Positions 7,071-36,848 of a DNA stretch of 57,667 nucleotides are shown in pieces. Origin of the DNA: a virus. Lineage: Duplodnaviria; Heunggongvirae; Uroviricota; Caudoviricetes. The notes beneath the pieces are model-generated. The model made no database searches, was not told the DNA's origin, and was given only the letters and a program-made list of their open reading frames with translations. Both the position numbers and the translations under genes were made by a program. Location of the stretch: the IMG/VR virus record IMGVR_UViG_3300025682_000004, one strand, 5' to 3'. The number at the start of each line of letters is the position of its first letter. Within the stretch, counting starts at the first letter, position 1.

Positions 7071-7286
7071 ATGAAAAAGATTAATAAAATTATGGAGAAC
7101 CTTAAAAAGAAGTCATTAAATGTGGTTCGTGTTGATAAAGACGAATTCGAACTCGACAATGGTGACGTGTATCCAATACCTTTTGAACTTGATATTGATG
7201 AAGATATTTCCGTTGAGGAATTTCAGAAGATTCTGGATTCATCCAAAGAAATAATGCTGAAGATTCTTGAACAGTCGAATGAGTAA
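7071..7286 (+). CDS. conserved small acidic protein inside IS607 (orfX)
   Basis: 71 aa; closely similar to 36630-36848; overlaps tnpA start. Confidence 0.8.
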   Translation: MKKINKIMENLKKKSLNVVRVDKDEFELDNGDVYPIPFELDIDEDISVEEFQKILDSSKEIMLKILEQSNE

Positions 7287-7908: not shown

Positions 7909-8065
7909 TAATTGGTTTGAATCTCGTGGTTTAAAGGTATTAAAGTATCAGTTGTTGTATGATTGGAGAATGAATGAAAGACCCGCATATAATGCTGCAA
8001 CAAGAAATGGTTGGTTAGAAAAATGTACAGAACATATGAAAAATAAATATCATAAAAATTTATAA
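7901..8065 (+). CDS. 54 aa cargo ORF resembling a repeat found in phage endonucleases
   Basis: Translated by hand: MNNNWFES...AYNAATRNGWLEKCTEHM; overlaps tnpA stop. Confidence 0.45.
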   Translation: MNNNWFESRGLKVLKYQLLYDWRMNERPAYNAATRNGWLEKCTEHMKNKYHKNL

Positions 8066-8067
8066 TA

Positions 8068-8220
8068 ATGGAAAATATTAATAATAAAAAACTTGAAAAA
8101 AGAACTGAAATCACAAAAGAGCCGAGAATAGGAAGCGGTCATCCAAACCTCGACCCTGCTTTAATTGACCCTAAGAAAAATGAACCTAAAGAACCCAATA
8201 AAAAGAACAACAATAAATAA
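8068..8220 (+). CDS. 50 aa cargo ORF
   Basis: MENINNKK...PKKNEPKEPNKKNNNK; TAATG-coupled to tnpB. Confidence 0.4.
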   Translation: MENINNKKLEKRTEITKEPRIGSGHPNLDPALIDPKKNEPKEPNKKNNNK

Positions 8221-13629: not shown

Positions 13630-14475
13630 AAAATATATCATATTCCCATTATTTTTGCAACGAATAATTATTCCATTCAACGCAAAATATGCAAGAAATA
13701 AATTTTATACTAATTAGTATTATACCATTAAGTATATTACAACAATGTACAGCATAAATGTCCAGATATTACCAAATTAATGTCCAAATATTATTATATC
13801 ATCAATATCAATTTAATGTGCTTTAATTATAAATATTTTAAATGTCCAGATTTGATATTCTATAAAATTTAATATTTATAAACTTTTTATAATTTTTTAT
13901 AAAATAACTTTTTAAAAAAATAAAAAGTAAGAGAAGATGTGGGTGTAGGGGCTACAAAAATACCTTTATTTTTAGTGGTAATTTGTGGTAAAAAATGGTA
14001 AAAAATGGAATTTTGTATTTGTCTATATTTAAAGCATTAAGATATTACTGTATATTATACTGATAATCAATTGTATTATTTTTAGTTTAAGTAAGTATAA
14101 TTTATAGTTAATTTAATAATTAATTTCAATAAAAAGTATAATTATAGTACAAAAAAACAGAGATATTTTTTTTATAAAAATAATGATATTATCTTGTCGC
14201 AAATTGCGACCACAAAATCACAATATAATGTTATTTTAATGTAATATCAATGTAATATCTATCATTAAAGAATAAAATCACAATATAATGTTATTTTATT
14301 ATAAAAAACCATTTTCTTGATATCAGGAAAATGGTTTTTATATTTATATTTTGACAAATAGGGAAGTAAAAATAATCCAAATAATGAAGTTTATTTAAAA
14401 TAACTTCTACTATAGTTCTACTGTAGTTCTACGGTAATATAAAAAATAATATTTTAACATGGACAACATGTCCAT
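13630..14475. repeat. non-coding repeat/palindrome-rich region, putative origin (left part)
   Basis: AATGTCC x3 (13757, 13779, 13841); aaaatcacaatataatgttatttta x2; palindrome 14303-14342; ttctac-based 11-nt tandem repeats at about 14405-14436; palindrome taacatggacaacatgtccatgtta. Confidence 0.5.
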
Positions 14476-15607
14476 GTTATATGCAATGCTACGTTATTTC
14501 TTCGTATTAATTTTTGTGGTTATAATCTTTTTGTTTTATTTTTTCTCCCACCGCACAAATATACGAATTAAATTTGGATTATCTTATTTATTTTAATATT
14601 ATCATCATCAAATACCACAATCTCATCTGTTATACCATATCCAGTATCAGCATCTTCAATAATAACAGTATCATACCCTTCAGCATTCATACTTTCGAGC
14701 CAACCTGCTCTACCCCAATTAGTACCGATATTTTCACCTTTCTCACTTATTGTATTACCAAGTCTTATATCACACTCGTAGATATATGCAACACCATTAT
14801 TATCTTTTATTACCGATGCGTAGTAGTTAGCAAATTTTATATCCTTAAAAAAGAAAAAACCATTTTCAGCACCTATCTGACCGCTTGTTTTGGTTTCACC
14901 ATATCTAAATTGTTTAAATTTATTCGGTGATGCATGATAACCTTTTATAGTTTTTTCGTTTTTATTAAATTTAGGTTTCTTATTTGTTTTATTTTGTTGG
15001 TATAATAGCCTAGCCTCGTCCTGTAATTCTTTTGTGTTGTCTAAAATAAATGCCCAATGATTACTACCATAATCTTTATCAGCAATAACAGTTTTATAAG
15101 GTGCATATAATTGAACACCATTTCTATATACATTTTTACCATTAGCATCTTTTACTTCTCTTCCTATAATAATTTCATCACCCTTATTTATTCTTCCATA
15201 ATCTTTAATTAAATTTATATCGTTTAAATAAACATATTCTTCAACAAAATCATTTTCATTCCATTTTCGAGCATTCTTAATGAAATCATTTAATTTGCTT
15301 TTATCAAATTTATAACCATAATCTAATTTATTGCTGTATTCACCAACATCTTCATTCAAAAATTCTCTAATAGTAGTTGCTATAAATTTACGTAGTTTCG
15401 TATCTTTCTCCATATATTTTACTTTATATATAAATATTTAATTTTTAATTTTCCACCCATAAAAATAAAACAAAAAGGTTCGTCTCTCGTATCAACATTT
15501 ATCCAATAAATACGCACTGCATATAACAAGGTGTATAAGAAAGTTTGCTATCAGCAGTTGTGTTAATTTAAAATTTTCTACAAGCAAACCTTCTCATACA
15601 CCCAACC
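14476..15607 (+). mobile_element. solo integron-like gene cassette
   Basis: Starts GTTATATGCAATGC; its reverse complement matches GCACTGCATATAAC (15514-15527) at 13/14; hairpin ends at the next GTT (15608). Confidence 0.8.
14568..15413 (-). CDS. ADP-ribosyltransferase-fold protein (ART-PolyVal-like C-terminal domain)
   Basis: GYHAS..F, GFFF...A.YY, IYECDI, GYDTVII, EIVVFD. Confidence 0.65.
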   Translation of the reverse strand: MEKDTKLRKFIATTIREFLNEDVGEYSNKLDYGYKFDKSKLNDFIKNARKWNENDFVEEYVYLNDINLIKDYGRINKGDEIIIGREVKDANGKNVYRNGVQLYAPYKTVIADKDYGSNHWAFILDNTKELQDEARLLYQQNKTNKKPKFNKNEKTIKGYHASPNKFKQFRYGETKTSGQIGAENGFFFFKDIKFANYYASVIKDNNGVAYIYECDIRLGNTISEKGENIGTNWGRAGWLESMNAEGYDTVIIEDADTGYGITDEIVVFDDDNIKINKIIQI

Positions 15608-15614
15608 GTTAATG
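15514..15614 (+). repeat. attC-like site of the solo cassette
   Basis: TAAC-aaggtgtataagaaagtttgct ... agcaaaccttctcatacacccaacc-GTTA imperfect hairpin. Confidence 0.8.
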
Positions 15615-16160
15615 TCCATGTTAATAAGTTTAATTTCATATTATAATAAAATAAAAAGAAATATTATGTTTTTTTTAGAATAGTATAATTTATATTTTTT
15701 TTTATAAAGTGCAATATATTGCACATTTATTATGATTTTGTTCAAAATAATTAACATTATCAATATAAAGTGCAAGGTAATGCACTTTTATTCTTATTTT
15801 TTTATTATAAAATTAAAATAGTTTTGTTATATAATTATTTTAAATTAATTTGTCAATTAAATCGCAGAAAATAGTTGACATATTAATTATATTTATTTTT
15901 TAATAAGGATAATAAAATTATTAATATTAATATCACAAGAATTATAATTTCTTTTTAGAAAAATATAAATATTCATTTTGCAGGACATCTTACAGGACAT
16001 TTTGTCTTGCAAGATATTTTTTTCTTTCAGAATTATATTTTACGGGACATTTTGTTTCTCTTTCAGAATGATATGATTACCATTGTATATGTCAGTATAT
16101 GTCAGTATCTTTGTATTGTGATTCTCTTTCAGAATGATATGATTATCAGTAATTATCGTT
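15608..16160. repeat. non-coding repeat-rich region, putative origin (right part)
   Basis: GGACAT x3 (15983, 15995, 16045; inverse of ATGTCC); ttctctttcagaatgatatgatta x2; ataaagtgca-based palindromes x2. Confidence 0.45.
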
Positions 16161-16161
16161 T

Positions 16162-16935
16162 TCATTTTTTAAACCCATGTTGTGATTCTTTTTCAGAATT
16201 ATTAGTATATTCACGAAACCATCTGTAAAGCATCTGTGGATATATTCGATGGTCGGCAAAACCATATAAACCACAAGAAAAAAAGTCATGTGCTTCCACT
16301 AAAAAAACTGTGTTAGTGTTTTTATTGATTCCAACATCAAGAGTATATGCGATTGGTGCTGATTTAAAATCAATAATCATTGCTTCAATTGCCATTATAT
16401 TTGGAAATATTTTAAAATCACCGAGATAATGTTGAATCCCCACCAACTTACCATTATAAATAAAACATCTTCTTTGGCTATCAATCCTGATACTTTCAGA
16501 AAATTGATAATTATTCGCTGGTATATAAATGAAGTCATCTTTTGTGTTGCAATTTAATAAACTTATATACTCATTAATTTTATTGTTTGATTTTGCTATC
16601 CAATAGCCATTACGAGGTAAATCTTTTTCTGTACCATTGTATATTTTTCTACCCGCATAATGAAACAATTCTTCTGGTACATTTAATGGTTTGGGAACAA
16701 CGCCATAAAATTGTTCAAGGAATGATGTTACAAATTCAACACTACCAACAGGTACATATTTTTTATGTGCATCATTAAAAATAAAAGTATTTTCGTCTGA
16801 TTTGGTGTTAAAAAACTTATACTTAATTACGTCTTTAGATTTATGATACCATTGTTGATATCGAATGGATTCCATGAGAGTAAACGTGAAATCGTGTCTT
16901 AATTCTTTGTCGATTTTCTGAATTAAAAATTTCAT
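16162..16935 (-). CDS. ATP-grasp domain protein (DUF4343-like)
   Basis: PVGSVEFV, RCFIYNGKLVG, AYTLDVG, LVEAHDFFSCGLYG. Confidence 0.75.
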   Translation of the reverse strand: MKFLIQKIDKELRHDFTFTLMESIRYQQWYHKSKDVIKYKFFNTKSDENTFIFNDAHKKYVPVGSVEFVTSFLEQFYGVVPKPLNVPEELFHYAGRKIYNGTEKDLPRNGYWIAKSNNKINEYISLLNCNTKDDFIYIPANNYQFSESIRIDSQRRCFIYNGKLVGIQHYLGDFKIFPNIMAIEAMIIDFKSAPIAYTLDVGINKNTNTVFLVEAHDFFSCGLYGFADHRIYPQMLYRWFREYTNNSEKESQHGFKK

Positions 16936-17023
16936 ATCATTTAATTAACGTTAATTAAAAAATTCTTTTTCCAATTTATCCAATTCATCAATTGTTTTAA
17001 CAACAACAGAACCACAATAATTG

Positions 17024-17686
17024 TCAAAAATCATAATTTACTTTACATTTAGTTTTTTTAAATACCCAGAAAAATGAATGATATTTTCTGGCATGACGTT
17101 GATTTTTCCATTTATTTTTTGAAAAAGAATTGATTCTATTTTTTGCTAAAAGGACAAATAAATCAATTGGGTAAAATCCTATTTTTTGTGCCATATTCAT
17201 TACAACACAATGAGAGAAATGGTTTTTACCGCTAGAAACAGTATCTTGTGTTTTAAAAACGAGAATACCATCATTTTCTAATAATCTATATGCTTCTTTT
17301 AAAGTACCATAGTAATGGTTTTTTAGTTCTTCAAAACTAAAATATCCTTCAAATCTTTTAGCAATAATACTACTACCATCATCATTATCTTTATATGTTT
17401 TACCAGCGATTACAAATGGTGGGTCAAACATAATACTTTTCATTGATTCATTTTCAAAGGGTAGATTATCACTACTTGCTTTAATCACATCTGGTTTTTG
17501 TGGGTATAAATCTGTTTTATGTTTTGGTTTTGGTAATTTTTTCCAAAAATTTCCAATAGAATAGGTACAATCGAGGTCAAATCTTTCGATATTATAAAGG
17601 GTCATTATATTTTTTATGGTTTCATCATTAGTATATGATATTGATGAAATTGGGATAAAATTAGAATCAGTATTATTTATTTCCAT
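17024..17686 (-). CDS. DNA methyltransferase (N6A/N4C, DPPF), not in a cassette
   Basis: LDCTYSIGNFW and FDPPF motifs, GILVFKTQD. Confidence 0.75.
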   Translation of the reverse strand: MEINNTDSNFIPISSISYTNDETIKNIMTLYNIERFDLDCTYSIGNFWKKLPKPKHKTDLYPQKPDVIKASSDNLPFENESMKSIMFDPPFVIAGKTYKDNDDGSSIIAKRFEGYFSFEELKNHYYGTLKEAYRLLENDGILVFKTQDTVSSGKNHFSHCVVMNMAQKIGFYPIDLFVLLAKNRINSFSKNKWKNQRHARKYHSFFWVFKKTKCKVNYDF

Positions 17687-17710
17687 TTTAAAATTTTTTA
17701 TTATTTTGAA

Positions 17711-18622
17711 TTAAAAATATGTTGGTTTATTTATTTCAGACCAATGAGTAATGTTATTTACATAAGAAATTAAATCTTTATCTATTGTATATTCAATTAT
17801 TTTCCAAGTTTCTTTTAAATCATTTGTAAAACTTCTATATCCCATATATACATTATTTTTATCATCCAATATCCAAACCATTTTTCCAAATTGTGGTAAT
17901 GGTGAATTTTCTTTAAATTCAATCCATTCATTATTTTTTTTGGAGATATTAATGTTAATGTTATCGTTATAAACTAATTTATTTTTATCGTGTTTAAAAT
18001 TACTAATAAAACGATAATCATATATTGGTTTACAATATTTCCATTCATTTCTAACTAAATCAACAAATAATCCATTTTCATTTTTATAATCATATTTTCC
18101 AAGAATTCTAATATCTTCATTTTCATTATTCCAAAAAAGGCATGTTAAATATTTTGTTGGATTAAATATAAATTTATACCACTGTTCAAGGGTAATATAT
18201 TGATGGTTTTTTAATTCATGGAGCAAATTTATAGATGTATTACCATATGGTATATTACAATAAAAATATTTATCGTTTGAATTTTTCACATTCGATTTAA
18301 AATATTCGTTTTCATATATTTCCCACACTGGGTTATTAATATCTTTTTCAACAAACCAATATTGTGGTTGTGTTTTTAATTTACGAGTTGCCCATTTACC
18401 ATTGTAGTAAATCAAACCGTTTTTGTTTGAAATTTTTTGACAATTTTCAGAAAAATTTATTGAAATATCACAATTTCCATTATTCAAAGCATTTGTATGA
18501 AAAATATCATTAAATGGATAATTTTTAATTTCAATTTCACTATTTTTCCAATCATCATTCCAACCAAACCTTGCTTGAAGTTCGGAAATAATTTCAATAA
18601 AACTTACATTATTTTCTTCCAT
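17711..18622 (-). CDS. hypothetical protein with C-terminal DUF551-like domain
   Basis: EWIEFKENSPLP...ITHWSEINKP; paralog of 12387-13292. Confidence 0.6.
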   Translation of the reverse strand: MEENNVSFIEIISELQARFGWNDDWKNSEIEIKNYPFNDIFHTNALNNGNCDISINFSENCQKISNKNGLIYYNGKWATRKLKTQPQYWFVEKDINNPVWEIYENEYFKSNVKNSNDKYFYCNIPYGNTSINLLHELKNHQYITLEQWYKFIFNPTKYLTCLFWNNENEDIRILGKYDYKNENGLFVDLVRNEWKYCKPIYDYRFISNFKHDKNKLVYNDNININISKKNNEWIEFKENSPLPQFGKMVWILDDKNNVYMGYRSFTNDLKETWKIIEYTIDKDLISYVNNITHWSEINKPTYF

Positions 18623-18675
18623 TTTTATTTAAAATTTAGTTATTTAAATTATTCTAACATTTTATACAATAAAAA

Positions 18676-18784
18676 GATTTTTATGCTACCCACACTTCTT
18701 CTGCCCTATTTATCGGATTGGGTTACCATCAACAGAGTTCGGGGTTTATAGGTATTCACCCGACAAGTTTTAAGCATAAAAATC
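18676..18784 (-). ncRNA. candidate structured RNA
   Basis: GC-enriched island closed by a perfect 12-bp stem gatttttatgct/agcataaaaatc; inner tcggg/cccga; cctat/atagg loop complementarity. Confidence 0.4.
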
Positions 18785-18922
18785 AAAAAACAAAAAATGA
18801 TGAATTTAGACATACAAAAGTAATAATATTTTAATATAAACAAAATTTATTTATATAAATTATTAAATTGTGTTGTATAAACAGTTCCAAATACACATCC
18901 TGTTGATTGACCAATTCCATAG

Positions 18923-19711
18923 TTAGTGGCAATACTCAGAAGCCCTCCGAACAGCGACATCATAATATTGTTTTTCCTTTTCTATTCCAATTGACCTTCG
19001 ATTTAATTTGATACAAGCCAAGTTTGTAGTTCCTGAACCCATACAATTATCTAAAACTATATCGCCTTCGTTGGTATAGGTTTTTACAAGATATTCCAAT
19101 AATTCCAATGGTTTTTGGGTTGGGTGCTCTCCTGTTTGCCTTTTTACAAATTGAATTGAAGATGGTACTCTCAATTTTGATACTTTAAATTCTGCACCTT
19201 GAAATAAACCGTAATTTTCGCTTTTTTTATAGTGCTTATTTGTTGCTCCTACACTTTTACTCCCACTACCTTTGCGTTCTTCCATTTGTTTATTATAAGT
19301 CCATTTTTTATTAGCAAACACTAATATATTTTCGTGTTCTTTCATAGGTTCTCGAACTGTATTAGCAAAGTTACTTCCTTTATCTTTTTGCCAAATCCAT
19401 TCGTGCTTGTAGTTTTTAAGGTTACTCATTACTAATGCACTTGTAAAGGGTTGTGAAGAAAATAAAACAATAACTCCGTTTTCTTTTAATACCCTATTAT
19501 ATTCAGCCCAAAGTTTATCTAAAGGCAAAATACTATCCCATTTATTTGCAGTTGTTCCGTAAGGCAAATCGCAAATTATCGCATCAATTGATTTATCCTC
19601 AATAAAAGGAAAAACATCGAAGCAATCAGCGTTCACAAAAATACTGCCACTAACTTCGGCTATATGCAATGCCTTATTTTGTGCTTCGTATTTAAATTTT
19701 TCTATATCCAT
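18923..19711 (-). CDS. beta-class DNA methyltransferase (cassette A)
   Basis: DLPY catalytic motif N-terminal, HPTQKP, LDNCMGSGTT SAM-binding motif C-terminal. Confidence 0.92.
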   Translation of the reverse strand: MDIEKFKYEAQNKALHIAEVSGSIFVNADCFDVFPFIEDKSIDAIICDLPYGTTANKWDSILPLDKLWAEYNRVLKENGVIVLFSSQPFTSALVMSNLKNYKHEWIWQKDKGSNFANTVREPMKEHENILVFANKKWTYNKQMEERKGSGSKSVGATNKHYKKSENYGLFQGAEFKVSKLRVPSSIQFVKRQTGEHPTQKPLELLEYLVKTYTNEGDIVLDNCMGSGTTNLACIKLNRRSIGIEKEKQYYDVAVRRASEYCH

Positions 19712-19779
19712 AAGTTTCTACTTCGTATTAAGTTTTGTGCAAGTTTGTCGGCACTGCACATAGCCGCAAAACGTTAACA
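19646..19779 (+). repeat. attC-like site A (long type)
   Basis: GCCACTAAC-ttcggctatatgcaatgcc ... ggcactgcacatagccgcaaaac-GTT; near-identical to sites D and E. Confidence 0.85.
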
Positions 19780-19797
19780 GTAATACTACATTCAATC

Positions 19798-20598
19798 TCA
19801 GAATAGAGTTTTCTGCGTTAAATCTTTTTCTTTTCTTTTTTCTTCCCACGCTTTTTTAATACGTTGTTCAATCATATCGCAGTATTCAGAAGATATTTCA
19901 CTCCCTATCCAATTTCTGTTATTTAGAATACTCATTTTAGCGGTTGTTCCACTTCCCATAAATGGGTCATAAATTATGTCGTTCTCATTGCTCCAACTTA
20001 AAATATGGTCATTAGCAAGGGCTTCTGGGAATACAGCAGGGTGTTCACCTTTTTGTGGTGGGATATACCAATAGTTATTTCTCCTACTAAATTCGGCACT
20101 TGGTTTACGCTTTTCTATTTTGTGTTCACCAGTTACCAACCTCCTACCTACTCCGCTTTTATCTTTTCCAAAAGAAGCATTTGGTTTGTCATAAATTAAG
20201 TTTGTAGTCTTTATTTTCCCTTTTGAAAACACAAACATATATTCAAAGTTTTGTGTGTAACACTTATTACTTCCTACTGCACCGCCACCGTCTTTAATCC
20301 AAATCATTGTGTCGTGCAAATTAAAACCAATCTCTTTGAAATATAAGGCTTGTTTAAATGATGTTCCGCTTTCATTTCCTTGAACGGTAGCATCTGAAAT
20401 AACCCAAACCAAAACACCACCTTCTTTTGTTACTCTGTAAAGTTCCTTTGCAATATCTTCAAACGGAAATGAATATCCGTTGTAAGTTCGCAATCCATCG
20501 TAAGGCGGAGATGTTATTGTTAAATCTACAAAGCAATCAGGCATCTTTGCCATTGTTTCTAAATTACTTTCATTGTAATTCTTGTTTATTTCAATCAT
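19798..20598 (-). CDS. beta-class DNA methyltransferase, SPPY type, possibly N4C (cassette B)
   Basis: TSPPY, HPAVFP, DPFMGSGTT. Confidence 0.92.
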   Translation of the reverse strand: MIEINKNYNESNLETMAKMPDCFVDLTITSPPYDGLRTYNGYSFPFEDIAKELYRVTKEGGVLVWVISDATVQGNESGTSFKQALYFKEIGFNLHDTMIWIKDGGGAVGSNKCYTQNFEYMFVFSKGKIKTTNLIYDKPNASFGKDKSGVGRRLVTGEHKIEKRKPSAEFSRRNNYWYIPPQKGEHPAVFPEALANDHILSWSNENDIIYDPFMGSGTTAKMSILNNRNWIGSEISSEYCDMIEQRIKKAWEEKRKEKDLTQKTLF

Positions 20599-20695
20599 AT
20601 TTTAAAATTTTTCAAATTAATATTTCCCACCGCACAAAAAAGAAAAGAAAAATGTCCAGTTCTCCGATTGAGCATTTGTGGTTTAAATCCGTACT

Positions 20696-20751
20696 ACTGC
20701 TAACAGCGTATAAAAACATTAAAACGATTTTTTATACGCAAAACGTTATAC
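20696..20751 (+). repeat. attC-like site B (short type)
   Basis: ACTGCTAAC-agcgtataaaaa-cattaaaacga-tttttatacgc-aaaac-GTT. Confidence 0.85.
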
Positions 20752-20752
20752 G

Positions 20753-21271
20753 CTATTTTAAGGACACAAAGTTCAAATCAGAACTTAATCCACACCCGAA
20801 ACAAAACCAAGATGTTTGAAACCAAGCACCACTATTCTTTTCAGGTTTAAAATTAAAGCGTTTGTTTGGTATCAACATTTGAATACCATTTTTATCAAAC
20901 ATCTTCCCACGTTCAATTCCTTCTAATGTTGTTAAAGGAAGTAAAAACATAAAAGGTTTTTTCAATTCATAAGCACGTTTTAAAAACTTGTCCTTTAATG
21001 AATATGGTGGGTTTGTAATAATCATATCATAATTTTCAGGTTCGTATTTGAAAAAATCTTTTCCATCTTCAATATGTGTTGTTATTACATTGTATCCAGC
21101 ATCTCTCAATACTTTTACAATTTTACTTTCTTTAATTGCTGTACACTCCCAAATTATTTTTACTTCCTTTGGTATGTATGGTAAAATCATTTCTACCGCT
21201 TCATTTGGTGTGTATAGTTCGTCAAACGCACCTCTTTTACTAAAATCTTTTTTCTGCTCTAATAAACTCAT
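20753..21271 (-). CDS. DNA adenine methyltransferase, NPPY type (cassette C)
   Basis: DELYTP, IWECTA, DFF, IITNPPYS; ATG at 21271, or upstream GTG 21337 inside the attC. Confidence 0.82.
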   Translation of the reverse strand: MSLLEQKKDFSKRGAFDELYTPNEAVEMILPYIPKEVKIIWECTAIKESKIVKVLRDAGYNVITTHIEDGKDFFKYEPENYDMIITNPPYSLKDKFLKRAYELKKPFMFLLPLTTLEGIERGKMFDKNGIQMLIPNKRFNFKPEKNSGAWFQTSWFCFGCGLSSDLNFVSLK

Positions 21272-21313
21272 ATTTGTTTTGTTTTTATTTTTAAAAGGAC
21301 ACAAAGAAAAAAC

Positions 21314-21370
21314 AGCGTATAACAAGATATAAACCACATTAAAACGATGGTTTATACCCAGCCGTTAGTG
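21314..21370 (+). repeat. attC-like site C (short type)
   Basis: AGCGTATAAC-aagatataaacca-cattaaaacga-tggtttataccca-gcc-GTT; same loop as site B. Confidence 0.85.
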
Positions 21371-22144
21371 GCAATACTCAGAAGCCCTCCGAACAGCGAC
21401 ATCATAATATTGTTTTTCCTTTTCTATTCCAATTGACCTTCGATTTAATTTGATACAAGCCAAGTTTGTTGTCCCTGAACCCATTGTGTTGTCTAAAACA
21501 ATTTCATTTTCTTTTGTGTATGTTCGCACAAGCATTTCCATTAATTCAATAGGCTTTTCAGTCGGGTGCAATTTGTTTAATCTCGGATTAGCAAGTTCAT
21601 AAATGTTTATAGGGTAATACATATCGGAATAGTTTTCAAAACCATCTTTTAATCCGCTTCCTACAACCCTGCTTTTTTCTTTTGCTCCACCACGTTTTCG
21701 CATCTTACCTTTTCTCATTATAGGATAATAGTTACATTTACCATTACTAAACACCACAATATCTTCATCAATTTGCAGTGGCATATATTTAGCGTTTTGA
21801 AAACTACCACTTTGTTTTTTATTCCATACCCATTTATGTTTGTAGTTCTTTACATTGCTCATTACTATTGCAGATGTAAATGGCTCTCTACCAAATAAAC
21901 AAATTGCACCGTTTGGTTTTATAATCCGGTTGTATTGCTCCCACAATTTATCGAATGGCAATACACTATCCCACTTACAAGCAGTAGTTCCATAGGGCAA
22001 ATCGGCAATAATCGCATCAATTGATTTATCCTCAATAAAAGGAAAAACATCGAAGCAATCAGCGTTCACAAAAATACTGCCACTAACATCGGCTATATGC
22101 AATGCCTTATTTTGTGCTTCGTATTTAAGTTTTTCTATATCCAT
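21365..22144 (-). CDS. beta-class DNA methyltransferase (cassette D)
   Basis: DLPY, HPTEKP, LDNTMGSGTT; ends nearly identical to cassette A. Confidence 0.92.
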   Translation of the reverse strand: MDIEKLKYEAQNKALHIADVSGSIFVNADCFDVFPFIEDKSIDAIIADLPYGTTACKWDSVLPFDKLWEQYNRIIKPNGAICLFGREPFTSAIVMSNVKNYKHKWVWNKKQSGSFQNAKYMPLQIDEDIVVFSNGKCNYYPIMRKGKMRKRGGAKEKSRVVGSGLKDGFENYSDMYYPINIYELANPRLNKLHPTEKPIELMEMLVRTYTKENEIVLDNTMGSGTTNLACIKLNRRSIGIEKEKQYYDVAVRRASEYCH

Positions 22145-22212
22145 AAGTTTCTACTTTGTATTAATTTTTGTGCAAGTTTGTCGGCACTGCACATAGCCGC
22201 AAAACGTTAGCG
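22079..22212 (+). repeat. attC-like site D (long type)
   Basis: GCCACTAAC...gcaaaac-GTT 22206. Confidence 0.85.
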
Positions 22213-22218
22213 GCAATG

Positions 22219-23016
22219 CTAAAAACCGCATCGCTGACAAGCAATCTCATAATATTTAGGTTCTTTTTCAATGCCGATAAATTTACGGTTGAGTTCTTTT
22301 GCAGCCAAACAGGTTGTTCCGCTTCCCATTGTATTGTCAAGCACGTAATCATTTTCATTTGAGTATGTTTTGATAAGATATTTCATAAGTTCTAAAGGTT
22401 TTTGAGTTGGATGGTTTCCTTTTTTTCTTTCAGTATTTATTTTTAAAATTGATTTTGGGTATCCCTTAAATTTAGGAACGTACTCATCATTTTTACACCC
22501 ACTTTCAGTTAAGTAATTACCCTTGTTTCCTCTTTTGCTTCTTTTTTTTATGTTTTCTATTAAACCTTGCGGATGATACGCAATTTTATTCTTTGAGTTT
22601 GGGTAGGTATATCCCTTACTAAATACTAATATATTTTCGTGTGTTTTTAAAGGCATAACATTTGCAAGTTGAAACCCTGTTGCATTTTCTTTTTCCCAAA
22701 TCCATTCATATTTAAACATTTCATAATTACTACTAATCAATTTAGTTGTAAATGGCTGTGAAGCAGTTAAAACTATTGCTCCATTATCTTTAATAATTCG
22801 CTTATATTCTTTCCAAAGTTTTTCTAATGGTATTATACTATCCCACTTACAAGCGGTTGTTCCGTAAGGCAAATCCGCCAAAATAAGTTGAACCGATTTA
22901 TAAGGAATAAGAGGTAAAATATCCATACAATCAGCATTGAATAAAGCACTACCGCTAACTTCGGCTATATGCAATGCCTTATTTTGTGCTTCGTATTTAA
23001 GTTTTTCTATATCCAT
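22219..23016 (-). CDS. beta-class DNA methyltransferase (cassette E)
   Basis: DLPY, HPTQKP, LDNTMGSGTT. Confidence 0.92.
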   Translation of the reverse strand: MDIEKLKYEAQNKALHIAEVSGSALFNADCMDILPLIPYKSVQLILADLPYGTTACKWDSIIPLEKLWKEYKRIIKDNGAIVLTASQPFTTKLISSNYEMFKYEWIWEKENATGFQLANVMPLKTHENILVFSKGYTYPNSKNKIAYHPQGLIENIKKRSKRGNKGNYLTESGCKNDEYVPKFKGYPKSILKINTERKKGNHPTQKPLELMKYLIKTYSNENDYVLDNTMGSGTTCLAAKELNRKFIGIEKEPKYYEIACQRCGF

Positions 23017-23083
23017 AAGTTTCTACTTTGTATTAATTTTTGTGCAAGTTTGTCGGCACTGCACATAGCCGTAGCCGTTATAA
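22951..23083 (+). repeat. attC-like site E (long type)
   Basis: ACCGCTAAC...gtagcc-GTT 23077. Confidence 0.85.
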
Positions 23084-23406
23084 ATATATTCTGCCAATTT
23101 TCTATTGGTATTTATTGCTATTTGACAAATATTGGTCGTATTTACAACATTTTTCACCAATAAAATTTTAATTCTATTGGACTTATGTTTTGTTACTTCA
23201 ATTTTTAAATTAGAAAAATCTAATTTTGGATTAATTTTAGAAAATTTATTTATGATATGTTCCTTTAGAATATCATTAATATTTTCATTATTAATGGTAT
23301 AAAAATATTTATTTGAACCATTAATTAAAGAAAAAAATATTTTCATTATTTTCTTCATTATTAATATTCTTTTTTCTTAGAATGAAACCAACAATTATTT
23401 ATTTTA

Positions 23407-23754
23407 TTAAATAATTATATTGTATTTTTTTAAAATATCAATCAATTTACATCCATTATATGGTTTATATAAAATTTCATGAAAAATTTTATGCTCTTTA
23501 CTTTCATATTGACCTGTGATACCTATAACGATAATATTGGGATATTTTTCGTTAATAATTTTAGTTGCTTCAATGCCATTCATAATTGGCATCATAACAT
23601 CCATAAATATTAATTTAGTGTTATTATTAATAAGATTAATACATTCTTCACCATTTGTTGCTTCAGTTATTTCTATTGGTTTTTCTTTTATTATTTCTTT
23701 TATTAAGAATCGATTAACATCGATATCATCAACAATAATTACATTTGGTTTCAT
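23407..23754 (-). CDS. stand-alone response regulator receiver (CheY-like)
   Basis: IIVDD, LIFMDVMMPIMNG, ITG, KP motifs. Confidence 0.9.
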   Translation of the reverse strand: MKPNVIIVDDIDVNRFLIKEIIKEKPIEITEATNGEECINLINNNTKLIFMDVMMPIMNGIEATKIINEKYPNIIVIGITGQYESKEHKIFHEILYKPYNGCKLIDILKKYNIII

Positions 23755-23797
23755 TTTAAAATAAACTTTATTAATATAAATAGAAAAAAAACAACAA

Positions 23798-24154
23798 TTA
23801 ATTAATATTAAAAAATTTTAATAAACTAAGATTTGCATTTTTCCAAGTAGGTTTTCTTGCTATAAATTTATTATTATAATCCCATTCATAAGTAATTTCA
23901 TCAATAGAATCATAATTATAAATTCGGTATGTTTCAAAAAATCTACATTTTGTTGGATTTATAGAATATAAATTAACAATATCACTTGCTAACTGTTCTG
24001 ATGCATTAGTAACAGATGTTCCATTTCCAATATCTTCAAATAATATATAAAACATATCTCCATTTTTTTCTATTCGAATAATGCAAGATGATTTATGAAC
24101 ACCAAAACCCATATATTCATATTCAAAATTTTCTATTTTATCCATTTCATTCAT
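23798..24154 (-). CDS. hypothetical protein
   Basis: 118 aa, GTSVTNASE motif. Confidence 0.65.
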   Translation of the reverse strand: MNEMDKIENFEYEYMGFGVHKSSCIIRIEKNGDMFYILFEDIGNGTSVTNASEQLASDIVNLYSINPTKCRFFETYRIYNYDSIDEITYEWDYNNKFIARKPTWKNANLSLLKFFNIN

Positions 24155-24522
24155 GTTTTCTTAATTTTAGATTTATTATTTTTTTGTTTTTTCTTTTCTT
24201 TAATTTCCAACTCACCATTTAAATATATTTTAACAAAATCTTTAATGGTCATGTTAAAATTAAAATTTTTGGATATTAATGAACCATTCGTTTCTATTTT
24301 ATATGAATTGGTTGTAAATATATGTTTGGTATTTATAATAAATTCATTGTCGGATTCTTTTAATAAAAATGGTGATGCTTTTTCATTGAATGAATATCCA
24401 AACAAATAATTTGTATTATTAAAATTAAAAAAAATTAAATTATAGGAATCTTTTTTTGCTTCTTTTATAATTTTAAGTGTGTTTTTTAATTCTTCACCAA
24501 AACGAATTTTATTATAGGGCAT
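24151..24522 (-). CDS. hypothetical protein
   Basis: 123 aa ORF behind a promoter. Confidence 0.6.
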   Translation of the reverse strand: MPYNKIRFGEELKNTLKIIKEAKKDSYNLIFFNFNNTNYLFGYSFNEKASPFLLKESDNEFIINTKHIFTTNSYKIETNGSLISKNFNFNMTIKDFVKIYLNGELEIKEKKKQKNNKSKIKKT

Positions 24523-24558
24523 ATTTTCTAATTTTTCTTTATTTTATTCAATTATATA

Positions 24559-24584
24559 TACGAAAAAGGAATTTAAATGTTACA
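24559..24584 (-). promoter_or_regulatory. ECF-sigma-type promoter
   Basis: TGTAAC-N16-CGTA on the minus strand. Confidence 0.75.
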
Positions 24585-24613
24585 AAAGTATTTATATTAA
24601 ACAATTTTTACTA

Positions 24614-25354
24614 ATGAATATTTTAAAAATAATCAATAAAATTCTTCTTTTTCTATATAAAATAGGTTTTAGAATTAAAGTTAAACCAATTTTAATTGGT
24701 GAACGTATTACACAATTTAAATATTGTTATCCTTGGGGTAGAACAAATACTGGTTCTAATCATGTTTATATTTCAGATAATAATGTTATTAAAAGAAATA
24801 ACGAATATTCTCTTTTTGTAAAAAAAGAGCATGTTGTTGATAATGGATGGTGGAATACTAATAATATAGAATTTGAATACACTAGAGGTGTTTTATTTAG
24901 TGAAAACACCTTTTTATATGGTAATTTTGAAGCAGAAATTTACATTCCTAAAGGATATGGTTTGTGGTCTGCATTTTGGCTATTTGGTGCAATGGATGAT
25001 AATAGTAGATTTGCAGAAATTGATATTTTTGAAGAATATGGTGATAAACAAAAATTTACATATAATACACATGCTGGTTCTGATTATAATCATAATATTT
25101 ATGGTAAGGCAGATGGTATGATTTTAAAAAACATTGAGGATAGATGGCATTACTATAGATTGGATTGGAATAAAAAATATTTAAAATATTATATTGATGA
25201 TTATCTTGTCGGTATTAGAAGTGCAAAAAATATTGATATTCCAATGCATGTAATTATTAGTTCGGGTATTGAAAATAAAGATTTGGATGTTATTGATAAA
25301 ATATTACCAAAAGAAATGAAAGTTAGAAATATAATTGTTAACCCAAAATTTTAA
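24614..25354 (+). CDS. glycoside hydrolase family 16
   Basis: YGNFEA, GLWSAFWL, catalytic EIDIFE, WHYYRLDW. Confidence 0.88.
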   Translation: MNILKIINKILLFLYKIGFRIKVKPILIGERITQFKYCYPWGRTNTGSNHVYISDNNVIKRNNEYSLFVKKEHVVDNGWWNTNNIEFEYTRGVLFSENTFLYGNFEAEIYIPKGYGLWSAFWLFGAMDDNSRFAEIDIFEEYGDKQKFTYNTHAGSDYNHNIYGKADGMILKNIEDRWHYYRLDWNKKYLKYYIDDYLVGIRSAKNIDIPMHVIISSGIENKDLDVIDKILPKEMKVRNIIVNPKF

Positions 25355-25939
25355 TTAAATTGTTACAATATTATCATCCTTAATTTTTACTTTTCTTTCA
25401 ATTACAATGTAGGGTGTATATTCATATGCAAAATAATCTGGTCGCATATTCTTTTTTACATATGCCATGTACATATTAAATCTTCTTTTATCTTCCCTAT
25501 TATATAAATCTTCATATTCATCATTTTTTGATGGTTTTATTAATATGAAATTGGGTTTATATTTATCAATAAAATCATTAATAATTTTAGTAATTGTTGA
25601 CATAACTCTAAAATGTCTACCCTTATTTAAAATATCTGTTGGAGTTCCACCAACAACACCAAAAGATACTTCCCATTTTCTACTTATTCTATCCACAAGA
25701 TTTATTAAAACAACATATTCGTCTTCTTCGGTATCAAAATGATAATTAACTTCATTAAAACTAACATTATCAAATTTAAATGGATATGGTTCATGGGTTG
25801 CTTCACCATATTCAACAATACTTTCAAGTTCTTCTGTTATATTATCTAAATCTAAATGGTGTAATCTATCACCAAATTCAGGAAAATTGGCTGAATATAT
25901 ACTTTCAATTTCTTCTCTAATAATATTTATAATATTCAT
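25355..25939 (-). CDS. phage hypothetical protein with IIREE-type leader
   Basis: 194 aa; FRVMSTI..II.DF motif. Confidence 0.65.
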   Translation of the reverse strand: MNIINIIREEIESIYSANFPEFGDRLHHLDLDNITEELESIVEYGEATHEPYPFKFDNVSFNEVNYHFDTEEDEYVVLINLVDRISRKWEVSFGVVGGTPTDILNKGRHFRVMSTITKIINDFIDKYKPNFILIKPSKNDEYEDLYNREDKRRFNMYMAYVKKNMRPDYFAYEYTPYIVIERKVKIKDDNIVTI

Positions 25940-26086
25940 CTTAAATAATAATTTTAATATAAATAGTTATGTTAAATTATTATTTACATAATTAATAACT
26001 TCTTGTGTTGGATTTTTTATATATTTAATTGTATAATATTTTTGTTTAATTTCATCGGCAGTTAATTCCAACAAAAGGTATAAAAA

Positions 26087-26749
26087 TTAAGCATAGAATG
26101 TTTTATTAATTAATTCGGAAATATCCATATCAACATCATTAATTTTTATTGATTTTAATTTAATTGGTGTGTTTTTAAATAATCTAATTTCGTTTTCTTC
26201 ATGAAAATTTGAATTCATATTCATTTCAAGAGTTTTATACCAATTAATATATTTTTCATCTATTTCAATTTCAATTAATGCTTCATTTTCTTTTGAATAA
26301 TCTCCCCAATGAGTTTCAGCACTATTTTCATTCCATGTCCAATATATACCTAATCTTTTTCCCTGTGTTTTTAAATGGTTTAACCAATTATTATCAACTC
26401 TAATTGCTCTATATAATTTTATTTTATTGGTTTGATTATCTATATTATCATATATATTATCCATTGCAACATTTAAATTGGATTCTAATTCACTTTTTAC
26501 TAAATCAAAAAATTCTTCCGATTCTAAAACATCATCATCATTACGATTATCTAAATTATTTTCATCTTTATAATAATCCAATAAATTATCAGCATAACCA
26601 TTTAAAATATAATTTCTAACATACTTATCTGTTATATAATTTCTAACATACTTATCTGTTAATATATCATCAATTTTTATATCATGAAAAGAAATTTCGT
26701 TTAAAAAATCTTTTACAACGTTTTCTATAAGTTTTATTATATTACCCAT
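26087..26749 (-). CDS. possible ADP-ribosyltransferase-fold protein
   Basis: LYRAI, LGIYWTW, EENEIRL pattern; contains a 27-bp tandem duplication. Confidence 0.45.
   Translation of the reverse strand: MGNIIKLIENVVKDFLNEISFHDIKIDDILTDKYVRNYITDKYVRNYILNGYADNLLDYYKDENNLDNRNDDDVLESEEFFDLVKSELESNLNVAMDNIYDNIDNQTNKIKLYRAIRVDNNWLNHLKTQGKRLGIYWTWNENSAETHWGDYSKENEALIEIEIDEKYINWYKTLEMNMNSNFHEENEIRLFKNTPIKLKSIKINDVDMDISELINKTFYA
26608..26661. repeat. 27-bp in-frame tandem duplication
   Basis: tataatttctaacatacttatctgtta x2 (TDKYVRNYI x2). Confidence 0.9.
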
Positions 26750-26751
26750 TA

Positions 26752-27270
26752 TTAATAATTCTCAATTGATTTAATGTTATTTTTTTTACAAATATAGTTT
26801 TCTATATTATCTTCGGTTACTAATATTGAATCAAAACCATTATTAAATATCCAATCAATAACACCTTCTGTACTTTCAATGGCATCCCATGTATTATTAT
26901 TAGTTGGTGAATTTATAAATGCTTTTGCTGTTCTAAAATTTTCTTTATTAAAATCATATCCAATATCATCCCAATCTTCATCTACATTTGGGTCATATAA
27001 TTTAAAACCGTTTTTATATAATAATTGAATATCGTTAAATTCTAAAGAATTAAAAACATTACCCAAATCTGCTTTTATAATTAATAGTTTATCACCATAT
27101 TTTTTTGCAAATGTTGATGATGTTGATAAAAAAATTATATCATCATTTTGAAATTCTTTTTTATTATCAGAAGTACCATGATATAATGTCTTTATGTTAT
27201 TAATATTTTCATTTATAACAGGTTTTAAATTTTTGATTTTATCAATCATCATTCTAATATCTTTACTCAT
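26752..27270 (-). CDS. ART-PolyVal-like ADP-ribosyltransferase-fold protein
   Basis: LYHGT, IFLST...AKKYG, NGFDSILV.E. Confidence 0.6.
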   Translation of the reverse strand: MSKDIRMMIDKIKNLKPVINENINNIKTLYHGTSDNKKEFQNDDIIFLSTSSTFAKKYGDKLLIIKADLGNVFNSLEFNDIQLLYKNGFKLYDPNVDEDWDDIGYDFNKENFRTAKAFINSPTNNNTWDAIESTEGVIDWIFNNGFDSILVTEDNIENYICKKNNIKSIENY

Positions 27271-27293
27271 GTTTTTATAAAATTTGTTTTTGA

Positions 27294-29020
27294 TTAATTT
27301 TCGAAATTAAGATAATTATAGATAATTTTTTTATAATCTTTACCAAACAAATATTCTAATACTGAATATGGATTCCAATAATTTTCGTTAGTCATGGTAT
27401 ATAGAGGATAATCATCATCATCGTCAAAATCAATTAAATTTCCATCTTCGTCAACCAATGGTTTAATTAAAACATGCATAAAATCATCAGAATCAGAATT
27501 TTTGTTAAAATCTATAATAACATAAACCATATCGTTATGACTAAAAGCATACCAATCTCTATATGCTCTATCAAAACCACCGCCATAGGTAAAACACCAT
27601 AATGAATTGCAACCAATTTTTTTAATCCCTTCGGGTGAATCAACCCTTACAATCATTTTATTATCATGATTATATATAATTTCAAAATCTTCTGTTTTTG
27701 ATAATTCGATAATATCTTCTTTTGTAAATTCAACCCCACCAATTAAATTTTGTTTATCTTCAACAAAACTAAGTAATTCTGATAATGTTATATTATTTTT
27801 GAACATTTTATTTAGTATTTTTTCTTGCATTTTTTTATCTCTATTTGATAATAATGAATAGTGTGCAAAAAAATAATCTAAATTATGTAAATAAGTATCT
27901 AATTGGGAAATTATTCTTTCTTTACGAATATCATTTTTTAAATTTCTAATGGCAATTGATGGTAAATCTTTTATTTTTTGAATTATTAAACGTCTTTTAT
28001 ATAAACTTCTCATGATTACATCAATATCATTTGGATTAATATTAAAAACATCAAATCCAACAATAGGAAAAACATTTTTATTGTATGTTTTAACATCTTT
28101 ATATAAAAATTTCAAATCAATAATTGAATTAAAATCTAATTTATCTAATTGTTTTGTTTTTTTCATTTCATAATAAAAATCAGAAATTATTTTAGTATAA
28201 TTATCACCATTAGTAATATTTAAAATAATATTTTTATCTTCTTCAGTTAGTTTACCAGTATTAAAATAAACTTTATTTGCTAATTGTAAATTTTCAATTA
28301 ACAAATTTTTATGTTGAAAAAAATCCACAACAATTTCATTGATAATATTTTTCATATAATTTTGTTTATATTTTTTTATTTCTACTATTTTAATATCATT
28401 TGAATTAAAAATAGAATAATATTTATATCCAGATAGAATATCCATACACCCATCAATTCCATTTTTTAATAAAAATAAAGATGCATTTTTATCACCATTC
28501 AATAAATGTGATATTTTTTTATAAATAAGAAAACCAATATCATGAAGGTTAAAATCTAATATCTTTTTATTGTTTTTTATATTTAATAAAGAATAATATT
28601 TATTACATAATTTATTAATTTGATTATTATTAATATAGTTAGATATATAAAACCAAGAATTTTTATTGTCCGTATCAAATACTTCAGAAAAGGTCAACAT
28701 ATTTAAATCACTATCTATTTTTACCAATTCATTCCAAATTTTATTTTTAAAATTTTCAATTTCTTTTTCTATGTTGTATAATAATTTAAAATTATCATAG
28801 TTTATTTTTTTTCTATTAATTTTATAATAAAGGGATGTTAATATGTTATATAAAATATTTGGTTCTATTGGTTTATTAAAGTCAATTAAATGGTAATGAT
28901 TCTTATTATTGAACAATTTAACTTTATATATATAATTTCCATACTTAAGAGCAGTTTGTGGATTATCCACAAAATAAAAACCCCAACCTAAATGTAATTC
29001 TTTATTTGCTTTTATTTTAT
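27294..29020 (-). CDS. 5'-truncated ART-like domain fused to a second virion-type protein
   Basis: Frame stays open upstream of 28970 (ELHLGWGFYFVDNP) to the IS end but lacks the YHG strand; internal MKNIINEIV leader; later IGCNSLWCFTY motif. Confidence 0.5.
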
Positions 29021-29069: not shown

Positions 29070-29483
29070 CTAACCTTGAGTGAGGATATACTGACGAATG
29101 GTATCTGGTGAAGCCTCACCAATAGAGCAAACAAAATACCCATCTGACCAAAAGGTACGCTCACGCCAAAAATGCTTGAATAGAAATGAACGATGTGATG
29201 AGTGCCAAATGTGATAGGTGGATTCTTGTTTTAACTTACGAACAATAGAGGTGATAGAAAGACGGGGAATGTAACGAATGAGGAAATGTATATGGTCTAA
29301 ATCTGACTCAAATACTTCAATTTCAAAATCTGAATTAGAAGTAATGTTTAAGAGAATGGAACGCATATCATCTTTTAACTGACCAACAAGTAACTTTTTA
29401 CGGTACTTGCAAACGAAAATGAGATGACACTTTAGGTAATGCTTTGAACGATTTGTGCTGATGTACTGTGATTTTTTAGACAT
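29070..29483 (-). CDS. tnpA: IS200-like HUH (Y1) transposase
   Basis: HLIFVCKYR, DHIH, FWSDGYF, YILTQ. Confidence 0.95.
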   Translation of the reverse strand: MSKKSQYISTNRSKHYLKCHLIFVCKYRKKLLVGQLKDDMRSILLNITSNSDFEIEVFESDLDHIHFLIRYIPRLSITSIVRKLKQESTYHIWHSSHRSFLFKHFWRERTFWSDGYFVCSIGEASPDTIRQYILTQG

Positions 29484-29574
29484 AATGAAGCAAGTTTTTG
29501 TGAAAGTTTTTACCCAAAGACGGAACTTTTACAAAAACTTGTGTATTTAGTATAAAAAGAGTATATTTGTAAAC

Positions 29575-30765
29575 GTGAAAACAATACATAGGACATATCG
29601 CTTTGAATTAAGACCAACACAAGAACAAAAAATGTTGTTGGAGAAGCATTTTGGATGCGTGAGATTCGTGTATAATCACTTTTTGAATGAGCGTAAGGAG
29701 CAGTATCAGGCAAACAAGAAGTCTGATAATTACTATGCTCAAGCAAAAACCTTAACTGAATTAAAAAAGCAAGAGGAAACTGTTTGGCTCAAAGAGGTGA
29801 ATAGTCAAACTTTGCAATTTGCTTTAAGGTCTTTAGATACAGCATATCTCAACTTCTTTCGTGGTAATGCCAAGTTTCCAAGATTTAAGTCAAGGAAAAG
29901 AAAGAATAGTTTTACCGTACCACAACATACAAAACTGATTAACGGTAAAGTTCACGTACCTAAATTCAAAGAGGGGATTAAATGTGTTGTTCACCGTGAA
30001 GTAAAAGGTGAAGTGGGTAAAATGACTTTTTCTAAAACACCTACTGGAAAATACTTTGTATCAATCCTAACCGAAGAACAGTATCAACCAAAAGAAAAAA
30101 CTGGTGCTGTTTGTGGTGTGGATTTAGGATTGAAAGATTTTGCTATTACTTCTGATGGAATCAAATTCAAGAATAACCGATATACCAAGAAATATGAAAG
30201 AGATTTAGCGAAAGCACAAAAACACCTTTCTCGTAAACAAAAAGGCAGTAGTTCGTTTGAAAGACAAAAACGAAAAGTTGCCAAGATACACGAGAAAATA
30301 TCCAACACAAGACAAGATGTATTACATAAGGTATCGCATCAACTTGTTTCTGATTATGACCTAATTGCTATTGAAGATCTTAATGTAAAAGGAATGATGA
30401 GCAATAGGAAGTTGTCAAAGCATATTGCAGACGCAAGTTGGGGTACGTTTGTAAGGTTCTTAGAGTACAAAGCAGATTGGAACGATAAACAAGTGGTTAA
30501 AATTAATCGCTTTTACCCTTCAAGCAAGACTTGTAATGTGTGTGGATGGATAAATCAAGATTTAAACCTTTCAGTTCGTGAATGGACTTGCAAAAATGGA
30601 CATCAATTAGATAGAGATGAAAATGCTGCAAAAAACATTCTGAATGAAGGATTAAAAATAATATCGGGTGGAACGCTCGATAACACGGGTGGAGATGGTG
30701 TAAGAAGTAGTAATACTCAACTATCTGTGAAACCCGAAGCCCATTTGTCTTTAGCAAATGGGTAG
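29575..30765 (+). CDS. tnpB: TnpB RNA-guided nuclease (IS605 type)
   Basis: GCVRFVYN, GVDLG, IEDL, PSSKTC, DRDENAA. Confidence 0.95.
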   Translation: MKTIHRTYRFELRPTQEQKMLLEKHFGCVRFVYNHFLNERKEQYQANKKSDNYYAQAKTLTELKKQEETVWLKEVNSQTLQFALRSLDTAYLNFFRGNAKFPRFKSRKRKNSFTVPQHTKLINGKVHVPKFKEGIKCVVHREVKGEVGKMTFSKTPTGKYFVSILTEEQYQPKEKTGAVCGVDLGLKDFAITSDGIKFKNNRYTKKYERDLAKAQKHLSRKQKGSSSFERQKRKVAKIHEKISNTRQDVLHKVSHQLVSDYDLIAIEDLNVKGMMSNRKLSKHIADASWGTFVRFLEYKADWNDKQVVKINRFYPSSKTCNVCGWINQDLNLSVREWTCKNGHQLDRDENAAKNILNEGLKIISGGTLDNTGGDGVRSSNTQLSVKPEAHLSLANG

Positions 30766-34684: not shown

Positions 34685-34719
34685 CCGTTAAAATTAATCT
34701 AACAAAATCTACTAATAGA

Positions 34720-36637: not shown

Positions 36638-36848
36638 TCGTTTTATCCAATATTTTTAGGATAGTCTCTTTCGAAGAATCCAAAATCTTCTGGAACTCTT
36701 CAATCGATATATCCTCATCGACATCCAACTCAAATGGAATTGGATATACATCACCGTTATCAAGTTCGAATTCGGTTTTATCAACTCGAACTACTTTCAA
36801 CGATTTATTTTTTAGGTTCTCCATTACTTTATTAATTTGCTTTCTCAT
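36630..36848 (-). CDS. conserved small acidic protein inside IS607 (orfX)
   Basis: 72 aa homolog of 7071-7286. Confidence 0.8.
   Translation of the reverse strand: MRKQINKVMENLKNKSLKVVRVDKTEFELDNGDVYPIPFELDVDEDISIEEFQKILDSSKETILKILDKTNE

Follow-up and report, generated by a model that had tools for sequence, protein, structure and literature searches.

Integron-like methyltransferase cassettes gained and lost at GTTA sites of a jumbo phage, probably through a Xer-like recombinase

The DNA analysed here, the window, is the whole 57,667-nucleotide stretch of the virus record IMGVR_UViG_3300025682_000004, whose gene content (rIIA, rIIB, a Dda-like helicase, an RNA ligase) is that of a phage. 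A Cas6-like gene in it is interrupted by an array of five units, A to E, each of which starts with GTT, holds one methyltransferase gene and ends in a TAAC...GTT hairpin (Table 1). An earlier interpretation made from the letters alone, here called the sequence-only reading, had described them as an integron-like array of attC-delimited cassettes; all five were recovered where it had placed them, each with its single methyltransferase, together with a sixth unit, F, which it had overlooked. Scores of 113 to 149 bits against PF01555 (cut-off 26.7) were obtained for the products of A, B, D and E, whose catalytic and S-adenosylmethionine-binding motifs align while their middle regions differ. The product of C falls outside PF01555; its only match is the phrog_799 DNA methyltransferase (E value 8.7e-37), and no solved relative of it was found. 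The G+C content of the units is 30 to 35%, and that of their flanks 20 to 24%. Cassettes A, D and E have 177-nt repeats in common, with ends 88 to 98% identical, and these common ends combined with different middles suggest that the three enzymes may recognise different target sequences. Two other phage arrays contain whole units resembling F (89% and 82% identity). Rfam gave no match in the window.

The nearest record, G001 (82.7 kb), is 99.9% identical to the window across 22.3 kb and is rated 27% complete, so that the phage genome should measure about 300 kb. G001 does not cover window positions 14000 to 28000. The searchable DNA of this phage comes to about 116 kb. Contigs carrying the target gene reach 220 to 240 kb. 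This is a large (jumbo) phage of sewage sludge, and its host is probably a member of the Bacteroidota, as the closest cultured relatives of the cassettes are Flavobacterium and Polaribacter phages.

Deletion of the array at GTT restores an open reading frame, as had been claimed. Indeed, the resulting 118-residue protein is an exact match to a recorded one, P0001, found on 36 contigs; the intact form scores 36.0 bits against PF01881 and the filled form 21.4 (cut-off 23). Seven runs were compared as contigs: X2, X4, X5, X7, X10, X14 and X18, of which X5 and X7 form one study and X4, activated sludge from 2016, may share a campaign with the source of the window. The empty-site joint, 18921 to 23077, is present with a 4-base overlap in four of the seven (X10, X14, X5 and X4, from four studies). 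The contigs concerned extend over 15.4 kb in X10, 13.8 kb in X14 and 27.3 kb in X4, with 0 to 1 other letters, and a metagenome contig, L141, has the empty site too. Run X18 gave no long contig of the window phage. In X2, both outer junctions of the filled allele are crossed by about 30 nt at the depth of the flanks, and in X7 the same GTTA is followed by 725 nt of other sequence. The P0001 cluster comprises nine forms: five are intact (36 + 7 contigs and others), two have an E-type end (6 + 2, or 8 contigs) and two have another end (5 + 1, or 6 contigs), which makes three protein alleles at this site.

The same behaviour was observed for cassette F, whose empty allele (joint 14475 to 15608) is base-exact in two of four runs, X10 and X4. 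In X10 the bodies of F and D are nevertheless found at the depth of the phage in another context, whether in the same genome or not. The third target is a GTTA that is empty in the window and lies within a response-regulator gene. All three have only GTTA in common and are used in one orientation; the empty joints place the crossover to within the 4 bases of the GTTA overlap. Searches with the interrupted gene found no relatives among the viral or genome contigs searched, and the junction pattern had no match in viral contigs. We thus observe precise presence and absence at GTTA, differing cargo at one site and two further GTTA sites, and what is new is that scattered secondary sites inside one phage lineage gain and lose cassettes with base precision. 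Two observations concern the interrupted genes themselves. The Cas6 C-terminal-like gene stands alone, the window's 20 largest repeat families including no CRISPR (clustered regularly interspaced short palindromic repeats) array. The response-regulator cluster (P0100-P0104) has several members with differing short tails away from 23620, which could be chimeric contigs or other insertions.

The units also appear as modules outside this locus. Among the 88 alignments reaching the start of cassette A, 57 begin at its exact first base, behind 53 different left neighbours, and three cultured Muminvirus phages gained or exchanged whole units at GTTA. With regard to cassette order in relatives, A-B-C-D is repeated in contig L009 (99.83% identity over 2933 nt), and the D|E junction is without independent confirmation. 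Since L009 then continues with other cassettes, and with DNA that both the window and G001 lack, blocks of cassettes may travel together. One back-joint in X14, 21368 to 19778, was considered as a circle and rejected, its contig being about 91% like cassette B.

Table 1. Cassettes, hairpins and target sites in the window
Feature	Position (strand)	Content	Remarks
Interrupted target gene	18847..23358 (-)	23077-23358 plus about 18847-18921; 118-aa Cas6 C-terminal-like protein	split by the array at its glycine-rich loop
Third GTTA target	23620..23623 (+)	empty in the window, within response-regulator gene	A/E-type hairpin joined there in X5 and X7 (one study)
Cassette A	18922..19772 (+), GTT to hairpin	gene 18923-19711 (-), 262 aa, beta-type N6/N4 methyltransferase	PF01555, 123 bits
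Hairpin A	19651..19776	TAAC...GTTA, 126 nt, offset +4	loop includes ATG of gene A
Cassette B	19773..20744 (+)	gene 19798-20598 (-), 266 aa	PF01555, SPPY motif
Hairpin B	20701..20748	48 nt, offset +4	11-nt loop identical to that of P12002L_attC1
Cassette C	20745..21363 (+)	gene 20753-21271 (-), 172 aa from ATG	NPPY methyltransferase, phrog_799
Hairpin C	21320..21367	48 nt, offset +3	same loop as hairpin B
Cassette D	21364..22205 (+)	gene 21365-22144 (-), 259 aa, PF01555	67% identity to A, middle differs
Hairpin D	22084..22209	126 nt, offset +4	ATG of gene D in loop
Cassette E	22206..23076 (+)	gene 22219-23016 (-), 265 aa, PF01555	56% identity to A
Hairpin E	22956..23080	125 nt, offset +3	right half of target site formed by its GTTA (23077)
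Cassette F	14476..15607 (+)	gene 14568-15413 (-), 281 aa	relatives with PF18760 (ART-PolyVal); beside a palindrome
Hairpin F	15524-15611	offset +3	

Several properties of the units are those of integron cassettes. The AAC and GTT triplets are found in all six, and R'' is complementary to the unit's own 5' end at 12 to 13 of 14 positions in each. This agrees with the covariation reported by the sequence-only reading: the left arm matches its own 5' end at 12/14 in A (10/10), 12/14 in B, 13/14 in C (10/10), 12/14 in D (10/10) and 12/14 in E, compared to 8, 6, 7, 10 and 6 of 14 for the start of the next unit. Over 103 neighbouring site pairs, obtained with a TA-anchored scan that has part of the consensus built in and misses other L boxes, the match averaged 6.7 of 10 to the own end and 3.3 to the next unit, the own end being better in 81 pairs and worse in 9. 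A strict hairpin scan called three sites in the window (A, D and E) and none in each of three shuffles, and a looser one recovers four of the six hairpins. The unit-based scan, which requires both an own-end match and a stem and recovers four calls in a Vibrio integron array, called 6/6 units within 14400-23200, with one stray call in the remaining window. Folding of both strands, as had been recommended, showed that the circle form of the minus (gene-sense) strand is the most stable of the four forms in 6/6 units, with z values of -4.6 to -8.3 relative to base shuffles. In this fold the stem pairs almost throughout and bulges on one side after AAC-G, with 1 to 2 further unpaired bases opposite in A and E. 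If the hairpins are counted as attC, there are five sites in 4.2 kb, where a cluster of attC sites lacking an integrase (CALIN) is recognised by at least two sites within 3 kb and no integrase near.

Other properties set the units apart. In classical attC sites, the spacer is unpaired on both sides and the R''-L'' arm has single extra bases (PMC2727003). None of the six units has an L-box bulge, and the register without a bulge is the best one in 160 of 212 family sites from the TA-anchored scan. The stem is offset by 3 to 4 nt towards the GTT side in 6/6 window units and in 16 of the 19 top-strand calls of the G002 array, and by 0 in the small control set (4/4 calls in the Vibrio integron array and 1/1 call in TJE1). 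The longer RYYYAAC/GTTRRRY pattern is unmatched, by eye, in A to E. All six are minus-strand genes that run against the TAAC...GTT direction, so the hairpin sits at the start of the gene that travels with it; the hairpin loops of A, D and E include the ATG, 60 nt from TAAC. The same direction prevails among 157 viral units (149 antisense, 4 sense, 4 without an open reading frame) and in G002 (28/28 antisense), while bacterial loci are mixed (8 antisense, 5 sense, 3 none). The integron-like claim was therefore right as regards mobile, GTT-precise units, in view of the empty alleles, the alternative inserts and the 53 left neighbours of A-type cassettes. It is not supported as regards membership in the classical attC/IntI family, against which stand the antisense genes, the +3/+4 offset, the lack of an L-box bulge, an IntI1-negative sister site and a linked recombinase without the IntI insertion. 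The units work like an integron cassette array and, by three tested features, fall outside the IntI/attC family.

Which enzyme moves them? The sequence-only reading had noted that the window lacks an integrase and had deduced that the recombinase must act in trans. No tyrosine recombinase was indeed detected in the window, where 77 of the 150 listed open reading frames were scanned by profile; PF00589 gave none among these or in G001, and stricter scans of G001 found no family hairpin. Action in trans is unproven, since about 116 kb of the roughly 300-kb genome were searched. In G002, a 38-kb array ends at the gene of a 289-aa tyrosine recombinase. This enzyme scores 155 bits against TIGR02249 and its G003 relative 146 bits, each in two stretches and against a cut-off of 265. 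The catalytic Arg and HxxR are 86-94 apart in their clade, 96-98 in host XerC/D-like enzymes and 134 in IntIA (seven rows gave no motif call), and the insertion of IntI is described as essential to integron function (PMC8138268). The tree of the clade holds 50 of 51 intended rows, L204 having yielded no protein, and rows L107, L227, L234, L236 and L245 are possibly partial or in the wrong frame; with a single IntI on a long branch, it does not give the position of the clade relative to IntI.

We surveyed the loci of the best 80 of 162 viral relatives of this recombinase, leaving out the seed locus. The 79 viral loci have 193 hairpins upstream of the recombinase gene, on one strand, and 4 downstream, with 0 in shuffles; a stricter scan gave 121 upstream versus 5 downstream. 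Where more than 2 kb of upstream sequence was present, at least one hairpin was found in 51 of 58 loci and at least two in 39. Of 32 resolved loci, 20 have the start of their first unit 39-72 nt ahead of the recombinase gene, and the attI-like site of these relatives is AT-rich, mostly with TA ahead of GTTA. At loci from bacterial genomes (n = 26) the link to hairpins is weaker (7/17). Two Bacteroidota genomes have same-offset hairpins downstream of 347- and 377-aa recombinase relatives (L255 2002-3928 and L257 246-4086), the cassette genes of L257 running in the classical direction. No hit to TIGR02249 above cut-off was found in any of five Bacteroidota genomes. The hairpin family is thus tightly linked to a Xer-like recombinase clade in other phages, and the units are likely moved by an enzyme of the Xer-like type and not by an integron integrase.

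We consider it quite probable that the five units are mobile single-gene cassettes which entered a GTTA in the Cas6-like gene, probably via a Xer-like recombinase, and which would provide a changeable set of anti-restriction methylases. Each unit or block would excise as a circle, in which its two ends would meet to form the complete hairpin of the gene-sense strand, bulging by 3-4 nt on one side. The Xer-like tyrosine recombinase, devoid of the IntI insertion, would act on this folded single strand and join it to a double-stranded GTTA, normally the attI-like site 39-72 nt before its own gene and here secondary sites, in the manner of attG insertion (PMC12614218). The enzyme could come from unseen parts of the genome, from a co-infecting phage or from a Bacteroidota host. 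The genes may be read from upstream phage promoters, as they are co-oriented with a minus-strand run from 24522 and a promoter-like repeat motif lies at 24586; the hairpin would supply the start of A, D and E. This motif, TTTGTAAC-N14-17-CGTA, has nine copies in the window, at 35, 293, 1290, 3714, 9596 and 46701 on the plus strand and at 24586, 34136 and 45006 on the minus strand, and is probably a phage promoter. Orphan methylases shielded the DNA of 936-type phages from restriction enzymes (PMC4190342), and the plating efficiency of Muminvirus followed one methylase (PMC7077304); by analogy with these two cases, anti-restriction is the likely benefit of the cassettes.

Several points weigh against this interpretation. 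Neither the 77 scanned reading frames of the window nor G001 yielded a recombinase of the clade, and a relative of 207 kb that is 91% complete yielded none either, so that for the window phage the link between enzyme and sites rests on relatives. The query clade was moreover seeded from an array-linked gene, 7 of the 58 recombinase loci have no detected upstream hairpin, and the window targets match the attI-like consensus in GTTA only. A circle junction of the window units is absent from the listed joints, one list giving 15 of 50, and contigs drop rare forms. As for the cargo, cassette F is not a methylase and the G002 array carries many other genes. Finally, a conserved gene is truncated by the array and the empty allele outnumbers the filled one, so that the benefit is not evident.

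Another reading, in our view rather unlikely, is that the units of the Xer-like system are selfish or neutral, being tolerated off-target insertions in which methylases are merely common cargo. It would explain insertions within genes (Cas6-like, response regulator), an empty allele seen in four of seven runs and on 36 contigs versus 8 with the right end of the window, the variation of site content between runs and the nature of F. However, all five array units encode methylases with intact motifs and different middles, the depth of the filled allele equals that of its flanks in X2, and orphan phage methylases proved protective in 936-type phages (PMC4190342). It appears improbable that the units are normal integron cassettes whose attC sites have diverged and which an IntI, either the host's or one from sludge bacteria, put into attG-type secondary sites. 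The AAC...GTT core, the crossover inside GTTA, the own-end complementarity and the better folding of one strand would all agree with it; the sister site P12002L_attC1 was classed as attC by HattCI (PMC9892861), and insertion of cassettes by IntI at attG sites of genomes has been reported (PMC12614218). The stem offset of the window and G002 sites, not seen in the 5/5 controls, and the antisense genes of 149/157 viral units nevertheless argue for another system, as does the lack of a TIGR02249 hit over cut-off in 5/5 Bacteroidota genomes. Besides, P12002L_attC1 was the sole IntI1-negative site among the six tested (PMC9892861).

We see very little chance that a HUH (IS200/IS605-type) or serine (IS607) transposase of the phage moves the units via their hairpins, even if genes for one Y1 TnpA and for two resolvases of the IS607 type are present in the window. 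Single-stranded hairpins beside short target words are the substrate of HUH enzymes. However, each such transposase or resolvase adjoins its own TnpB, the hairpin family is tied by position and strand to the Xer-like gene, and GTTA is common to both unit ends, as in site-specific exchange. It is just as hard to believe that the array is an assembly chimera produced through the 177-nt repeats of A, D and E. The 88-98% identity of these ends, the different cassette that follows D in L009 and the fact that no contig of the seven runs spans the array all point that way, but contigs of X2 extend about 30 nt across each outer junction with the depth of the flanks, the right-junction protein is found on 8 contigs and the A-B-C-D order recurs in L009. 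A chimera could consequently concern the internal order only, for instance D|E.

A few features of the window were noted beside the cassettes. A sixth methyltransferase (phrog_24333, 17024-17686, minus strand) lies outside every detected cassette. Short repeats at 15980-16150, in a gene-poor stretch (13630-14470 and 15620-16160), possibly mark an origin or control region. An IS607-type element (resolvase and TnpB, 34687-36953) is present in the window and not in the 99.9% identical G001, and further TnpA/TnpB pairs lie at 7267-9365 and 29070-30765. A depth spike at 24025-24325 was gone once likeness was set at 97%.

Beyond the single locus, we give somewhat better than even chances to a broader proposal: that a second, IntI-independent capture system exists, in which a Xer-like enzyme without the IntI insertion would use folded single-stranded sites of its own geometry, these sites being common to Bacteroidota chromosomes and their phages, and would place methylase cassettes as whole blocks at any GTTA of a jumbo phage, quickly enough for strains of one phage to differ at three sites. 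The Xer-like recombination favoured above would offer phages a mechanism for the fast gain and loss of orphan methylases, with natural before and after alleles exact to the base. If a Xer-like enzyme does recombine these hairpins, single-strand recombination can proceed without the IntI insertion, which bears on the origin of integrons from Xer-type enzymes. Complete integrons are reported to be rare in Bacteroidota (PMC9024848), and on the same condition this group would have a hidden cassette pool.

The novelty of phage methylase cassettes as such is lower than claimed, because phage CALINs, five of them with methylases, were published in 2023 along with six sites assayed with IntI1 (Qi et al. 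2023, PMC9892861). Our literature search, with most subscription papers outside its reach, found this paper and no description of the window variant. The system resembles integron gene cassettes in its single-gene units, its AAC...GTT core and GTT crossover, the own-end complementarity that completes the circle hairpin, its arrays and the attI-like site that immediately precedes a tyrosine recombinase in relatives. It differs from them in that the window genes are antisense, with the hairpin at the gene start, and the linked recombinase lacks the IntI insertion. Its stems, offset by 3-4 nt, have a one-sided bulge on the L'-R' arm, unlike the two-sided spacer of attC (PMC2727003). The phage CALINs, among them that of Polaribacter phage P12002L, are likewise clustered hairpins without an integrase that carry methylases, and P12002L_attC1 shares its geometry and its 11-nt loop with hairpins B and C; its negative outcome with IntI1 is that of a single site in a single assay. 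However, they were treated as classical attC sites, and the accessible text of PMC9892861 reports neither empty alleles nor a Xer-like partner. The IntI1-positive P12002L_attC2 appears, from a comparison with Table S3 of that paper, to map to the first junction of the array (L122, about 3190-3250) and not to a family hairpin.

Orphan phage methylases (936-type, PMC4190342; Muminvirus, PMC7077304) are comparable as solitary N6/N4 enzymes that vary between close phages and are linked to escape from restriction, but in the accessible parts of both papers no site-specific capture mechanism is given. That part of PMC7077304 makes no mention of attC or integrons, though its phages swap units at GTTA. 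The insertion of cassettes at attG sites is alike in its use of scattered, short GTT-type genomic sites away from the integrase. Loot et al. are said to have described such insertion of integron cassettes in 2024. It involves IntI in bacterial genomes, whereas the cassettes described here belong to a phage genome, were found in natural populations and carry a different hairpin family.

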